Source: Enterobacteria phage T6. From it: 64,000 bases of DNA. Under the pieces are notes generated by a model, which did not search any database, was not told where the DNA came from, and saw only the letters and a program-made list of their open reading frames with translations. Of the stretch, positions 55,218 through 59,604 are shown one piece after another. The position numbers and the translations under genes are program-made. Location: the sequence record MH550421; one strand, given 5' to 3'. Each line of letters opens with the position of its first letter. Position 1 is the stretch's first letter.

Positions 55218-55476
55218 GAATTTGTTCTAAAATTTTAGAATATTCCTTTGTATCAGATTTACGTACAATTGATACACTATAAGGCATACTATCGGTGTCT
55301 TTTATAAAGCGTTCCAAATGACACTCTAACAAAATTTCTGGATTATAAATCGTGTACATCAAATTACCTGTTGCTCCACGATATTGGCAGATTTCTACTG
55401 ATTGAACATCATTCCATAATTTTGTTAAGACTAAATCACCTACTTCTAATTTAGGAAAGCCCATGTTATTCACCAA
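55198..55476 (-). CDS. hypothetical protein, 92 aa
   Basis: ORF. Confidence 0.45.
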   Translation of the reverse strand: MVNNMGFPKLEVGDLVLTKLWNDVQSVEICQYRGATGNLMYTIYNPEILLECHLERFIKDTDSMPYSVSIVRKSDTKEYSKILEQIHANKKD

Positions 55477-55651
55477 TTAAAGTTTCAATATAAGAATCAA
55501 GATTTACTTTAGCTTCTTCCATAAGAGTTTTGTATTTAATCTTGTTAGCATGTCCGGAGAAAGCTGATTCATCAATAATTGTTGATGTATGAACAGCTTT
55601 ACTATACGTCTCAATTAATTCTCTTAATTTAAAAGCCTGCTCACTTGTCAT
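55466..55651 (-). CDS. small acidic protein, 61 aa (small paralog family)
   Basis: MTSEQAFKLRELIE... shared N-terminal pattern. Confidence 0.45.
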   Translation of the reverse strand: MTSEQAFKLRELIETYSKAVHTSTIIDESAFSGHANKIKYKTLMEEAKVNLDSYIETLIGE

Positions 55652-55783
55652 TACATACTCCTTTGAATAATATCAATAATGTTGTTCACCAGATTATAAG
55701 TAAACATTGGGTAATTATATTGAATCATCACATACACAACAAACAAAACTTTCATTCTCTTCTCCTTGGCAGTTGACAAGATT

Positions 55784-55813
55784 ACTATACCATAACCTTG
55801 CCAACTTGTAAAC
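55784..55813 (-). promoter_or_regulatory. sigma70-type early promoter
   Basis: rc GTTTAC (55808-55813), 18-nt spacer, TGGTATAGT. Confidence 0.65.
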
Positions 55814-55989
55814 CATTAAATGACGTTTTCGATAAAATTCTGAAGCTTTGTATGAGCATCAACCATGATTTTCATTTCTTCTTTGGCGAAAGCTGTACCT
55901 CTTTCCCGAGAAGAACACTCATAGTCAGAAACTGCATTAGCATATTCTTCAATTAACTTCATTAAAAACATCTGCTTTTCAGTTTTCAT
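55813..55989 (-). CDS. small protein, 58 aa (small paralog family)
   Basis: MKTEKQMFLMKLIEEY...; ATG at 55989; below track cutoff. Confidence 0.35.
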
Positions 55990-56173
55990 TATTCCACCTA
56001 ATCATTTCAAGATATTGAACTAACTTAGCTTTGGATTTATCCAAATCCTTTTTAGCTGCTTCTATACCGTCGTATGAATATCCTTCACAATGCTCAACTG
56101 CTAATTGATATGAATCTATTTCAATATCACGTGCTAATTTAATGATTTTTTCAAACTGTTCGCGTGTTAGCAT
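55979..56173 (-). CDS. small acidic protein, 64 aa (small paralog family)
   Basis: MLTREQFEKIIKLARD... Confidence 0.45.
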   Translation of the reverse strand: MLTREQFEKIIKLARDIEIDSYQLAVEHCEGYSYDGIEAAKKDLDKSKAKLVQYLEMIRWNNEN

Positions 56174-56175
56174 AA

Positions 56176-56379
56176 TTAAACTCTCGTATTATGATCGATA
56201 ATTTCATCAAGAAACATATCTAACGCTTCTACAGCATTATTAACTTTAGCTTCAAATTCTTCAATACTTTTATTTGCAATGCCTGACGAAAACCAAGCAA
56301 AGTCACTAAGTTCCTCATCTGCTTTACGAATTAAAGCTACTAATTCCTTAATTTTATCCGCTTGTTCGATACTAATCAT
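56176..56379 (-). CDS. small acidic protein, ~67 aa (small paralog family)
   Basis: [16 protein letters not shown]... from ATG at 56379, coupled TAATG overlap with upstream gene. Confidence 0.45.
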   Translation of the reverse strand: MISIEQADKIKELVALIRKADEELSDFAWFSSGIANKSIEEFEAKVNNAVEALDMFLDEIIDHNTRV

Positions 56380-56567
56380 TATTCCACCACATATGAAAGA
56401 GAGAATATTGCACACGCCATATGAGTTGCAGCTTCATCACACATATTATAACGTTTCTTAAGAAGTTCTACAAGCTCTTCACTGGTAACTTCATCCATGT
56501 CGACGAAAAAATCACCATTAATGATGACGTAGATATTTCCTTCTTGATTAAGTGCTTCAATTTTCAT
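56379..56567 (-). CDS. hypothetical protein, ~62 aa
   Basis: ATG at 56567 with GAGGAG SD; longer track N-terminus is translated promoter. Confidence 0.4.
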
Positions 56568-56595
56568 GATGTTCTCCTCTTTATCTGATAGTTGT

Positions 56596-56625
56596 ATAGT
56601 ACCACAGCTCAAACGGAAAGTAAAC
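56596..56625 (-). promoter_or_regulatory. sigma70-type early promoter
   Basis: rc GTTTAC (56620-56625), 18-nt spacer, TGGTACTAT. Confidence 0.7.
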
Positions 56626-56633
56626 CGGTAAAA

Positions 56634-56660
56634 TGAAAAAAGTCTCCCGAAGGAGACTAA
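56634..56660 (-). terminator. hairpin terminator
   Basis: agtctcc-cgaa-ggagact preceded by A-run. Confidence 0.7.
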
Positions 56661-56662
56661 TG

Positions 56663-57049
56663 TTATTCGAGGGAAAGAAGATATTTACTTTGGTAAAACA
56701 TTCCAGTAATATCATCTATCGTGCTTTGGATGGCTGGAGGCATTTCTTTATAAATGCTGTTAGATTGGTCTAGTATGCGATCAATCATTTTAATTGTGTC
56801 GGTAGGAAGTTTACTGGCATCTGGAATTGAAGGTGTGTATTTTCTACCAGAATACCCCAAATATTGCTCACCAAATTTATCAATCAAATCTGGCAACTCG
56901 GAGAAAATAAAATCGTATGCTTTGTGTCTAGCATAACTTTTAGTTTCAAAATGTGCAGAATGAAAATAAGCTTGTGCAGCCATTAATAAACCTAAGTATT
57001 CATCTGCCTTTGAAGGTTTTCCACTTTGTGAAAAGTCGCTGAATTTCAT
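56663..57049 (-). CDS. hypothetical protein, 128 aa (rI.-1 position)
   Basis: ORF immediately downstream of rI with overlapping stop/start. Confidence 0.5.
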
Positions 57050-57339
57050 TCAGTCTCCAATTTAATGTTCATAATTCTAGCGTATGATTGTGCCATCTCC
57101 GCGCCTCGCTCTATACATTCAAAATCAGAAGAGCACGGGTCATTTTTATAGGTCGTTCTCATAAAACTATAGAATTGTTCAGACGATTCTACGCTTTTAT
57201 TTTCAAAAAGCATATAAACGTGCCTAATACCAGATTCCATAAATTTATCAAAATGAGGATCGACATTCGCTTCAATCGGTGGAGATAAAACAAATGACAA
57301 TCCTAGCATGGCAAATAGTGCCGTTGCTTTTAAGGCCAT
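57046..57339 (-). CDS. rI: lysis inhibition regulator RI
   Basis: 97 aa with signal-anchor MALKATALFAMLGLSFVLS..., recognised as T4 RI. Confidence 0.85.
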   Translation of the reverse strand: MALKATALFAMLGLSFVLSPPIEANVDPHFDKFMESGIRHVYMLFENKSVESSEQFYSFMRTTYKNDPCSSDFECIERGAEMAQSYARIMNIKLETE

Positions 57340-57351
57340 AAAGGCCTCCTA

Positions 57352-57564
57352 TCATTTTTGTCCTGTATTTACTTTATGCCGATGCACGGCCTTAACTTTA
57401 TCAAGGTATTTTTCAAAATTTCGCAATCTAGTATAGTCTGCCGGAGATTGGTTGAGTGATACTTCTCGACGCAAAGCTGAAATGATATTTCCAACTTCCC
57501 TACGAATTTCATCTAATTGAAGCACAGTAAGATTGCGAAGTTGCTTTTCAGTTAATTGTAGCAT
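57352..57564 (-). CDS. hypothetical protein, 70 aa (rI.1 position)
   Basis: small ORF. Confidence 0.4.
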
Positions 57565-57604
57565 ATACCCCTTTAGTTAGATAAACCTATTTATAACTTT
57601 TGCA

Positions 57605-58186
57605 CTAACCGAGCTTTTTAGTTAATTCATTCCAATGTTTTCTACACAAAGAAACATAAATTTCATCACCAATACAGATTTGATTACCTTCTTTAACTGG
57701 TGTTCCATCTTCCATTAATCGAGCTGTCATAATCGCTTTTTTGCCGCAATGACAAACTGCCTTTAGTTCAATAAGTTTATCTGCAATCGCTAAAAGTTCT
57801 TTAGAACCTTCAAACAATTTTCCAGCGAAATCAGTCCTTAATCCATAAGCCATAACAGGAACATTATATGTATCAACAATTCGACTTAATTGATGCACCT
57901 GTTCAGTTTTTAAAAACTGAGCTTCATCTACAAATACGCAATGAATATCTTTTTGTGCTTCAGCCCATTTATAGAACTCGAAAATATCCATATCATCTGT
58001 AATAATATTCGCTTCCTGCTTAATTCCAATGCGAGAAACAACTTCACAGACAGAATCGCGAGTATCAATAGCAGGCTTAAGAACTAATACACTCATTCCA
58101 CGTTCTTTATAATTATGTGCAGCAGTTAAAAGAGAAGCAGATTTTCCAGCATTCATTGCTGCATAAGTAAAAATTAAACTCGCCAT
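57605..58186 (-). CDS. tk: thymidine kinase
   Basis: 193 aa; P-loop NAGKSASLL; zinc cysteines near C-terminus. Confidence 0.9.
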   Translation of the reverse strand: MASLIFTYAAMNAGKSASLLTAAHNYKERGMSVLVLKPAIDTRDSVCEVVSRIGIKQEANIITDDMDIFEFYKWAEAQKDIHCVFVDEAQFLKTEQVHQLSRIVDTYNVPVMAYGLRTDFAGKLFEGSKELLAIADKLIELKAVCHCGKKAIMTARLMEDGTPVKEGNQICIGDEIYVSLCRKHWNELTKKLG

Positions 58187-58187
58187 C

Positions 58188-58376
58188 TTAGTCCTTAGTT
58201 AAATTTTCTAAATATGTTTCTAAATCATTTTCAGCTTTATCGATAGATTTTACTAATTCGTAATATGTTTCGGCATCTCCATATTCAGAAGATATTTCAA
58301 AAGACAAATCCTTTTCTAAACTAATAATTTCACCAACTAAAAATAATATTTCGTTCTTTTGCTCGCGAGTAATCAT
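58188..58376 (-). CDS. small acidic protein, 62 aa (small paralog family)
   Basis: MITREQKNEILFLVGEII... Confidence 0.45.
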   Translation of the reverse strand: MITREQKNEILFLVGEIISLEKDLSFEISSEYGDAETYYELVKSIDKAENDLETYLENLTKD

Positions 58377-58558
58377 AAGGAATTTATATAATCAATGAGT
58401 TCTTGTTCTTTATTATCGAATTCTTTAGAAAGTTCTTCGTACTCGTTTGCACTAAAAGGACCGCATTCATTACAAACTTTTTCCAATTCACTATTTTTAT
58501 CCATAACTTCGTGGATAAGAGAAAAGAGTTTGTCTTTTTGTTCTTTGCTTAGGCTCAT
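58373..58558 (-). CDS. small acidic protein, 61 aa (small paralog family)
   Basis: MSLSKEQKDKLFSLIHEV... Confidence 0.45.
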   Translation of the reverse strand: MSLSKEQKDKLFSLIHEVMDKNSELEKVCNECGPFSANEYEELSKEFDNKEQELIDYINSL

Positions 58559-58728
58559 ATATTAATTTCCAAAAGTTTTAAAATAATTCGCTTTTGCTTA
58601 AATATTTCCACAGTTAAATGATCAGTATCTTTTTGACCAATTCCAATGGCAAAACCTTTATTAACAGCGAGTTCAATTAAATTATCAAGTTCACGTAACA
58701 CTTCATATTGTAACTCAGAACTATTCAT
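58555..58728 (-). CDS. small protein, 57 aa
   Basis: ATG at 58728; stop overlaps next start (ATATGA); below track cutoff. Confidence 0.3.
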   Translation of the reverse strand: MNSSELQYEVLRELDNLIELAVNKGFAIGIGQKDTDHLTVEIFKQKRIILKLLEINI

Positions 58729-58952: not shown

Positions 58953-59155
58953 TATTCTTCTACATGCTGTTTACGACCTTTCTTATCAATAAAGGTATAT
59001 TCAACGAATGTTCCAATGTAGTCTTTATCTACATCATGTGGACTATTAATTGGACATTTAGTACGGCAAATGCGTTCCCATTGACGAATAATTACTGCCT
59101 TATTCTTTGGGTCATATGGATGTGGATAATGTATATTCATAATAATGGTTCCCAA
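58928..59155 (-). CDS. hypothetical protein, 75 aa
   Basis: small ORF. Confidence 0.4.
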   Translation of the reverse strand: MGTIIMNIHYPHPYDPKNKAVIIRQWERICRTKCPINSPHDVDKDYIGTFVEYTFIDKKGRKQHVEEYCLKVTWL

Positions 59156-59604
59156 TCAACAATCACAATTTCTAATTTAGAGGAATATGTATCTAAAATC
59201 CCCTCAATAATATCCCAGTTCCCTTTACCTATGCCTGCACCAATCCTAGGCATATAGATTGTAGGTTTAATCAGTTTATTTTCACCAAACTCATTTAATT
59301 CTAACATACAATTCATTAAAGCGGAATACTCAAAATTTGGCCCTGGTTGAAATTGAGTATAAAGATTAAAGCAGTAAGCTTTATGAGTCCTAAAGTATTT
59401 TTCATAGACTGAATAAGAACCAAGTTTAGTTACATCACCCCATTCAGTCTGTAATTTATCAGCTTCCAAAATTTTAGGGAAAGCTTTGGTTAATTGACCT
59501 GCGACTCCAGCTTTCATCGTGTGAAAACAATTACATCCATGCGCAATATTTTTACCTTCAGCGAAAAGGGCGACAATATCGCCCTTGATATATTTTACAA
59601 TCAT
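59137..59604 (-). CDS. macrodomain protein, TARG1/DarG-like (candidate ADP-ribose hydrolase)
   Basis: 155 aa; KGDIVALFAEGKNIAHGCNCFHTMKAGVAGQL and RIGAGIGKG motifs resemble the OARD1/TARG1 macro fold. Confidence 0.55.
   Translation of the reverse strand: MIVKYIKGDIVALFAEGKNIAHGCNCFHTMKAGVAGQLTKAFPKILEADKLQTEWGDVTKLGSYSVYEKYFRTHKAYCFNLYTQFQPGPNFEYSALMNCMLELNEFGENKLIKPTIYMPRIGAGIGKGNWDIIEGILDTYSSKLEIVIVDWEPLL

Follow-up and report, generated by a model that had tools for sequence, protein, structure and literature searches.

Several very short open reading frames (ORFs) surround the genes tk and rI of Enterobacteria phage T6, and they raise two questions: are they copies of one gene, and what would such copies do? 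We addressed both in a window of 64,000 nucleotides of T6 DNA (sequence record MH550421; "the window" denotes this whole stretch), in which an earlier note, made without database searches, had proposed a dispersed family of at least six acidic paralogs of ~57-67 amino acids (aa). Judged by sequence profiles, the six ORFs are old, diverged paralogs of one family restricted to the Tevenvirinae, DUF7438. The family is already catalogued: Pfam holds it as DUF7438, its genes are annotated in T4, RB14 and T6, and four of the copies are common to phrog_653. We are highly confident of the identity claims taken jointly, that is, of family, fold class, early expression and dispensability. The whole statement, in which these old two-helix paralogs act as small accessory factors that bind proteins, with specificity set by their variable half, is a plausible but tentative reading. 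Genes of this kind are typical of the function-unassigned set in the best-studied group of lytic phages: tiny, expressed early, not needed in the laboratory and different from one isolate to the next. Our analysis adds the rejection of a seventh candidate, a candidate distant member (the pseT.2-like ORF), an architecture of conserved ends and a variable middle, a polymorphism at tk.2/tk.1, and a set of annotation errors.

The 3.4-kb stretch around these genes was 100% identical to the Enterobacteria phage T6 records AP018814.1 and NC_054907.1 (window coordinate = record coordinate + 6) and ~97% identical to ~480 other Tequatrovirus genomes. All six ORFs were present on the minus strand where the earlier note had placed them, each as an annotated gene, with mobD.2a off by 3 nucleotides (nt), at 55816-55989 and not 55813-55989:

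58373-58558, minus strand: tk.2, 61 aa; PF24219 at 68.6 bits over residues 3-61; start overlaps the ORF110c stop (ATGA)
58188-58376, minus strand: tk.1, 62 aa; PF24219 at 55.6 bits; leave-one-out E 2.3e-7; ATGA overlap with tk.2
56176-56379, minus strand: mobD.4, 67 aa; PF24219 at 56.9 bits; TAATG overlap with mobD.5; RB14 annotates the same 204 nt
55979-56173, minus strand: mobD.3, 64 aa; PF24219 at 64.1 bits; phrog_653 at 2e-25
55816-55989, minus strand: mobD.2a, 57 aa; PF24219 at 56.5 bits; phrog_2758; 11-nt overlap with the mobD.3 stop
55466-55651, minus strand: RB14ncORF101c (ORF101c below), 61 aa; PF24219 at 57.8 bits; phrog_4859; TAATG overlap with the 34-aa mobD.2

Two ORFs of fewer than 60 aa had been claimed; among the six, mobD.2a is one and there is no second. 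The acidity attributed to the family holds for half of it. Across the six copies the net charge runs from -2 to -10 and the pI from 4.2 to 5.3; tk.1, tk.2 and mobD.4 are strongly acidic (-8 to -10), and ORF101c, mobD.2a and mobD.3 only mildly so (-2 to -3).

Profile evidence for one family

Pairwise BLASTP between the six was mostly insignificant, the best pairs being ORF101c with mobD.4 (36% identity, E 2e-4) and mobD.3 with tk.1 (30%, E 1e-3), and the family claim therefore stands on profiles. The 57-position Pfam model PF24219 (DUF7438), whose gathering threshold is 25 bits, matched all six end to end (55.6-68.6 bits, E 6e-19 to 7e-15, model positions 1-56/57). To build a profile from the copies themselves, as the earlier note had suggested, we trained a hidden Markov model (HMM) on five copies and scored the sixth against 910 window ORFs and ~1000 composition-preserving shuffles. 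In every run the left-out copy was the top non-training ORF of the 910 (E 2e-7 to 9e-4), and it outscored all of the shuffles by 5-18 bits; the similarity therefore exceeds acidic helical composition. The motifs described in the earlier note proved to be the family consensus, which begins with M-I/L-T/S-x-E-Q-x-x-K-I/L...L in the N-terminal segment and has L-x-x-Y/F-L/I-E-x-I/L in the C-terminal one.

DUF7438 and phrog_653, together with phrog_4859 and phrog_2758, are the family itself under its catalogue names. PHROGs places mobD.3, mobD.4, tk.1 and tk.2 in phrog_653 and splits off ORF101c (phrog_4859) and mobD.2a (phrog_2758), with weak cross-matches among the three groups; ORF101c, for example, cross-matches both of the others. 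The sole Pfam match of 24 family representatives was PF24219. One DUF7438 representative (alignment A2) additionally matched DUF2524 (E 1e-4), another uncharacterised family that may be a remote relative. A literature search found no paper mentioning DUF7438, and these genes are not mentioned in the text of an early-protein toxicity screen in the Mosigvirus AV110.

We then scanned the whole T6 genome with an HMM built from the 24 family sequences. Among 2359 ORFs of at least 30 aa, the scan returned the same six at E <= 1e-16, no further confident member, and one marginal match, a pseT.2-like ORF (E 0.005). This ORF of 76 aa lies outside the window, at NC_054907.1 134371-134601 on the minus strand (L004:20572-20802), with the sequence MISWHQFEHLKGLIYESE...DLHDYIQSLVEKNK. 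It has no Pfam match; hhalign aligned it with the family end to end (80% probability, E 1.4e-5). The ORF is thus a probable, though distant, seventh member, in which the segment between the helices is longer.

The seventh copy suspected in the earlier note, at 58555-58728, did not survive. This gene, ORF110c (RB32ORF110c, phrog_3452), had no Pfam or HMM match to the family, and hhalign gave a probability of 2.3%. It resembles the family in being a neighbouring gene of 57 aa that is translationally coupled to tk.2 and for which AlphaFold2 likewise gives a two-helix hairpin (pLDDT 83), but its conserved core differs, with a NKGFAIGIGQKD loop and a basic second helix. ORF110c is 79-98% identical within Tequatrovirus and absent from T4. 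Two other neighbours were set aside as well: rI.1, considered as a basic relative, gave weak matches in two of the leave-one-out runs (E 0.12 and 1.9) but had no match to PF24219 and reached 7% probability in hhalign, and mobD.5, which is acidic and 62 aa long, had no family match and belongs to a different PHROG. Outside the window, the C-terminal half of a 936-aa protein (P0015) consists of ~18 tandem 23-residue repeats (LSSEQRSTLTELLHTIESTSETT). In 12 stretches (E 2.5e-11) these match the family profile, at its N-terminal helix motif only, which probably reflects convergence at the level of the motif, an S/T-x-E-Q helix cap followed by an amphipathic helix, and not homology.

Several public labels at this locus sit poorly with these matches; the annotations of tk.2, ORF101c and mobD.4/gp097 look wrong, and correcting misleading T6 and T4 annotations is the main practical value of this work as it stands. 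ORF101c is labelled "kilA / helicase loader" in T6 records (KMB99_gp099), and phrog_4859 is labelled "helicase loader". A gp59-type helicase loader was rejected, the best BLASTP match to T6 gp59 (217 aa) having E 0.9 over 8 residues and the sole significant Pfam match being DUF7438. The same is the only significant Pfam match of mobD.4, named as molybdopterin-guanine dinucleotide biosynthesis protein MobD (T4 mobD.4, T6 gp097); that name is apparently a gene-symbol artefact. The T6 RefSeq record shortens tk.2 to 43 aa, though the Pfam match spans residues 3-61 of the 61-aa ORF, and 61 aa is the length annotated in T4 and RB14. ORF110c carries the label "rI antiholin" in T6 RefSeq, for which the sole stated source is the record's "similar to ... 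rI antiholin" note. In T4, ORFs of the tk region were named "ORF 59.7" and "ORF 59.9" in GenBank record X04567.1.

Predicted fold, conservation and distribution

AlphaFold2, run on tk.2 as a monomer with an alignment of the six sequences only, returned an antiparallel two-helix hairpin (pLDDT 92.6) with helices at residues 5-30 and 34-60. Family members are accordingly predicted to be single, stand-alone antiparallel two-helix hairpins of ~60 residues. Family-wide, hydrophobic positions form an a/d seam, in which Ala or Ser occupies the d positions of the mid-helix region and further hydrophobic residues lie towards both termini. The most conserved residues (E6, Q7, L14, L54 and Y57 in tk.2 numbering) mark the beginning of the first helix and the end of the second. 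Because they come from opposite chain ends, the conserved N- and C-terminal segments would be adjacent where the modelled hairpin is open. The loop-proximal half, the hairpin tip, is poorly conserved and mostly acidic: column entropy is 1.94 bits at the ends versus 2.72 bits in this middle part, and identity among the six copies is 29% versus 13%.

Fold comparison did not lead to a known function. Sequence and profile searches of the PDB found no related chain (nothing below E 0.26), and Foldseek against the PDB and viral models gave no match at E <= 1e-3. The PDB neighbours, all at E of at least 0.76, are generic hairpins (Rop, FrmR/CsoR, designed hairpin oligomers, PHYL1 and Mediator Med11/22), and those among viral models are uncharacterised phage proteins of ~55-60 aa. 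Across Foldseek, the PDB, Pfam and PADLOC we found no link to any enzyme, to a fold that binds nucleic acid, or to models of defence or anti-defence systems; PADLOC yielded only scattered single-member matches at E of at least 5e-4.

How widely is the family spread? Among 1.84 billion cluster representatives, 31 clusters matched at E <= 1e-3, nearly all of 50-76 aa. The matches include no fusions with other domains, in keeping with a family of stand-alone Tevenvirinae proteins of ~55-67 residues. Named sources were Tequatrovirus, Dhakavirus-type phages, phages VR7, VR20 and VR25, Kanagawavirus, Edwardsiella phage PEi20 and Enterobacter phages; for many clusters the longest contigs were ~165-173 kb, as for T4-like genomes, and a divergent metagenomic member (P0034) lay on contigs of 0.9 and 1.8 kb, too short to be informative about its gene context. 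Individual paralogs have their own relatives elsewhere: mobD.3 has orthologues in Dhakavirus VR5 and phages VR7 and VR20, and mobD.2a has relatives in Mosigvirus (RB69p108-like) and in Dhakavirus (VR5_095). Copy numbers, counted within tk +/- 6 kb only, were as follows:

T6: six members
T4: mobD.3, tk.1, tk.2 and a short-loop mobD.4 intact; mobD.2a frameshifted (NC_000866); no ORF101c
Dhakavirus VR5: three members
Mosigvirus PhAPEC2: two members
Jiaodavirus JD18: one member
Karamvirus ZX13: tk present, no member

The slot directly upstream of tk holds a member in four genera, with no gap to tk in JD18, 1 nt in T6, 9 nt in Mosigvirus and an interrupting homing-endonuclease gene in Dhakavirus. 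Intact ORFs and motifs are kept in at least four genera at 40-60% identity. The six copies share no DNA-level repeats, and hence there was no recent duplication or gene conversion; as orthologues of individual paralogs also occur in other genera, the duplications are old.

Within Tequatrovirus, the tk.2/tk.1 locus is dimorphic. Searches with tblastn found tk.2 in 741 records, 573 of them below 60% identity and about 170 of the T6/T4 type, tk.1 in 194 phage records and ORF101c in 192. Absence of tk.1 beside a divergent tk.2 was seen in RB3, the one example examined: RB3 lacks tk.1, and its tk.2 is 56% identical to that of T6, while in the flanks tk, rI.1 and rI.-1 are 100% identical at the protein level and ORF110c is 95% identical. 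Amino-acid changes between the two tk.2 alleles fall mostly in codons 17-50, and synonymous changes occur gene-wide. The resulting dS of ~1.24, compared with 0.08-0.17 in flanking genes, points to an old allele exchanged by recombination and not to local hypermutation; overall dN/dS is ~0.29. In mobD.4, indels between T6 and RB3 or T4 are confined to the loop, T4 and RB3 having the shorter loop variant.

Expression, dispensability and possible role

In a time-resolved omics study of T4 (PMC9697503), mobD.3 and mobD.4 have early RNA and early protein, tk.1 and tk.2 early RNA and middle protein, and mobD.2a early RNA and no protein call. The proposal of a multi-copy family of tiny early proteins is borne out to this extent: one profile covers all six, five T4 orthologues have early RNA, four have protein, and early-type promoter-like sites are present. 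Translation, which the earlier note had wanted confirmed for its shortest members, is documented for four T4 orthologues, and the sub-60-aa mobD.2a is without a protein call; conservation across genera and the Pfam match support its being coding. In the T4 reference NC_000866, a frameshift breaks mobD.2a (L006:3997-4178, minus strand) in two: a 38-aa ORF holds the N-terminal part and a second fragment the C-terminal part, and each of them matches the family HMM. The HIDEN-SEQ preprint (bioRxiv 10.1101/2025.11.20.689424) uses a T4 annotation in which mobD.2a has 174 nt, the intact length; the strains may differ here, or a sequencing error may be responsible.

Knock-downs of mobD.2a, mobD.3, mobD.4, tk.1 and tk.2 by CRISPRi-ART were all called "Not Fit" (PMC11879866), and the same five T4 genes are "Non-essential" with adjusted p = 1 in the HIDEN-SEQ comparison table, where tk itself is reported as non-essential too (bioRxiv 10.1101/2025.11.20.689424). 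Both screens are genome-wide, and in laboratory hosts each of the five genes is dispensable individually. A viable T4 deletion spans nrdC.11-mobD.3 (PMC9825161).

The functional proposal of the earlier note, small inhibitors of host proteins, may hold; the observations here neither establish nor contradict it. A small stand-alone hairpin that is expressed early, dispensable, restricted to one lineage and variable in copies and alleles has the features that we associate with phage accessory proteins binding host or defence proteins. The six proteins may accordingly be small stoichiometric protein binders, with an accessory part in host takeover or counter-defence, and not enzymes or nucleic-acid binders. 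The conserved termini would serve as a structural clasp of the hairpin, possibly also as a dimer or common docking surface, and the variable half would give each paralog or allele its own partner. Taken alone, this binding mechanism is slightly more tentative than the statement as a whole. Functional analogy can be drawn with the phytoplasma effector PHYL1/SAP54 (6inr) and the C-terminal domain of AvrRps4 (4b6x), small two-helix hairpins that act by binding host proteins. They reach TM 0.73-0.77 to the tk.2 model, but with Foldseek E 1.6-3.4 and in unrelated organisms.

Several observations weigh against the binder proposal. A permutation comparison of ends and middle gave 1/10000 and is post hoc, since the partition was picked once the alignment had been seen, and the conserved termini may be purely structural. 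Between the tk.2 alleles, the central-region dN/dS is ~0.68 and not >1, which indicates relaxed constraint or old allelic divergence and not demonstrated positive selection. Overlaps among small early ORFs are commonplace in T4-like genomes, and the coupling of the paralogs tells little for this reason. Finally, single-gene knock-down and insertion, as well as the nrdC.11-mobD.3 deletion, gave no phenotype for the T4 orthologues. A more far-reaching form of the proposal, in which DUF7438 is a phage "mini-binder" scaffold with an invariant terminal clasp and a variable half diversified into specific binders, is unlikely as matters stand. If it were true, every paralog and recombining cassette (two tk.2 types, tk.1 present or absent) would have its own host or defence protein to neutralise, and laboratory strains would show no single-gene phenotype because the relevant targets are absent there. 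A scaffold with a variable tip would also make a compact natural binder set and a tractable route to host-takeover and anti-defence targets in E. coli.

Could the hairpins instead pair into Rop-like assemblies, as homodimers or as heterodimers of neighbouring paralogs, forming four-helix bundles that bind nucleic acid or regulate? ColE1 Rop, an RNA-binding homodimer, is likewise an antiparallel helical hairpin of ~60 residues. Together with FrmR/CsoR and designed hairpin oligomers, it is among the best Foldseek neighbours of the tk.2 model in the PDB (1nkd, 1rpo; TM 0.84-0.85). The extra hydrophobic positions beside the a/d seam near the termini and the translational coupling of adjacent paralogs would suit such pairing. 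Yet structural matches at E of at least 0.76 amount to generic hairpin geometry, and Rop itself scores E 1.6-1.8 at 15% identity with no sequence relationship; sequence or significant structural similarity to the Rop family was rejected on these values and on the PDB profile search. The T6 proteins, modelled as a monomer, are moreover acidic, and their net charge of -2 to -10 speaks against direct contact with nucleic acid. In the region examined, several genera have a single copy beside tk, so heterodimers cannot be the ancestral state, and we consider Rop-like assembly quite unlikely. The same charge can be read the other way, as that of acidic nucleic-acid mimics, Ocr/Arn-type decoys against restriction or against other defence proteins that bind DNA or RNA. 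This would fit tk.1, tk.2 and mobD.4, which carry -8 to -10 in ~60 residues, and early expression, dispensability and a variable repertoire are expected of anti-defence genes. It fits ORF101c, mobD.2a and mobD.3 poorly at only -2 to -3. A 60-residue hairpin is also small for a DNA mimic, Foldseek and the PDB search gave no likeness to known mimics, and PADLOC matched no defence-related model, which leaves mimicry quite improbable.

The position of these genes hints at a partner within the phage, and the proteins could modulate or scaffold phage proteins such as thymidine kinase or the dNTP-synthesis complex. In Tequatrovirus, Mosigvirus and Jiaodavirus a member immediately precedes tk, at the spacings given above, and in Dhakavirus the homing-endonuclease gene has come between the two. 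We nevertheless judge this very unlikely, given the four of six T6 copies found 1.2-2.1 kb beyond tk, on the far side of rI.-1 and the terminator-like hairpin, and Karamvirus ZX13, which has tk but no member within 6 kb. T4-like early regions are, besides, generally syntenic, and tk is non-essential. That the genes are non-functional filler, drifting remnants in a hyperplastic region, is extremely improbable. They are individually dispensable, variably present and, for mobD.2a, frameshifted in the T4 reference; but ORFs and motifs stay intact across genera, the tk.2 alleles show the overall dN/dS already noted, four T4 orthologues are detected as protein, and the predicted fold is of high confidence.

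Gene order, regulatory sites and neighbouring genes

Along the direction of transcription, all on the minus strand, the genes run tk.4, tk.3, RB32ORF111c, RB32ORF110c, tk.2, tk.1, tk, rI.1, rI and rI.-1, followed by a terminator-like hairpin, mobD.5, mobD.4, mobD.3, mobD.2a, a promoter-like site, mobD.2, RB14ncORF101c, RB14ncORF100c and mobD.1. The translational coupling noted earlier is present, through ATGA overlaps at ORF110c/tk.2 and tk.2/tk.1 and TAATG overlaps at mobD.5/mobD.4 and mobD.2/ORF101c. Elsewhere, mobD.3 and mobD.2a overlap by 11 nt, mobD.4 and mobD.3 are 2 nt apart, and the tk.1 stop lies 1 nt ahead of the tk start. The sites between the genes are:

56641-56658, minus strand: terminator-like hairpin and T-run directly after the rI.-1 stop; 7-bp stem with 4 GC pairs, then TTTTTTCATTT
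56596-56625, minus strand: promoter-like site upstream of mobD.5-mobD.4-mobD.3-mobD.2a; GTTTAC, 18-nt spacer, TGG-TACTAT; read from the sequence and missed by the consensus scan
55784-55812, minus strand: promoter-like site of sigma-70 / T4-early type between mobD.2a and mobD.2/ORF101c; TTTACA, 17-nt spacer, TG-TATAGT; 10/12 consensus-scan matches plus TG

The hairpin sits between the tk-rI unit and the mobD.5 unit. Its stem is perfect and GC-rich (AGTCTCC-TTCG-GGAGACT), and it has a terminator-like score on both strands. Both promoter-like sites resemble the T4 early type, and a promoter role is inferred for 55784-55812. In T4, the mobD.5 promoter and transcript serve as an RNA control (PMC1702504).

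Directly after the early-type site at 55784-55812 lies mobD.2 (window 55651-55755, minus strand), a hydrophobic ORF of 34 aa (MKVLFVVYVMIQYNYPMFTYNLVNNIIDIIQRSM) that has a strong Shine-Dalgarno sequence (AAGGAGAAGAGA) and TAATG coupling to ORF101c; it may encode a small membrane peptide. At the other end of the locus, tk.4 (window 59137-59604, minus strand), credited in the T4 record with an A1pp phosphatase motif, is 55% identical to its RB3 counterpart (L013:1468-1947), compared with 93-100% for neighbouring genes, and looks like another allelic cassette of the same hyperplastic stretch.

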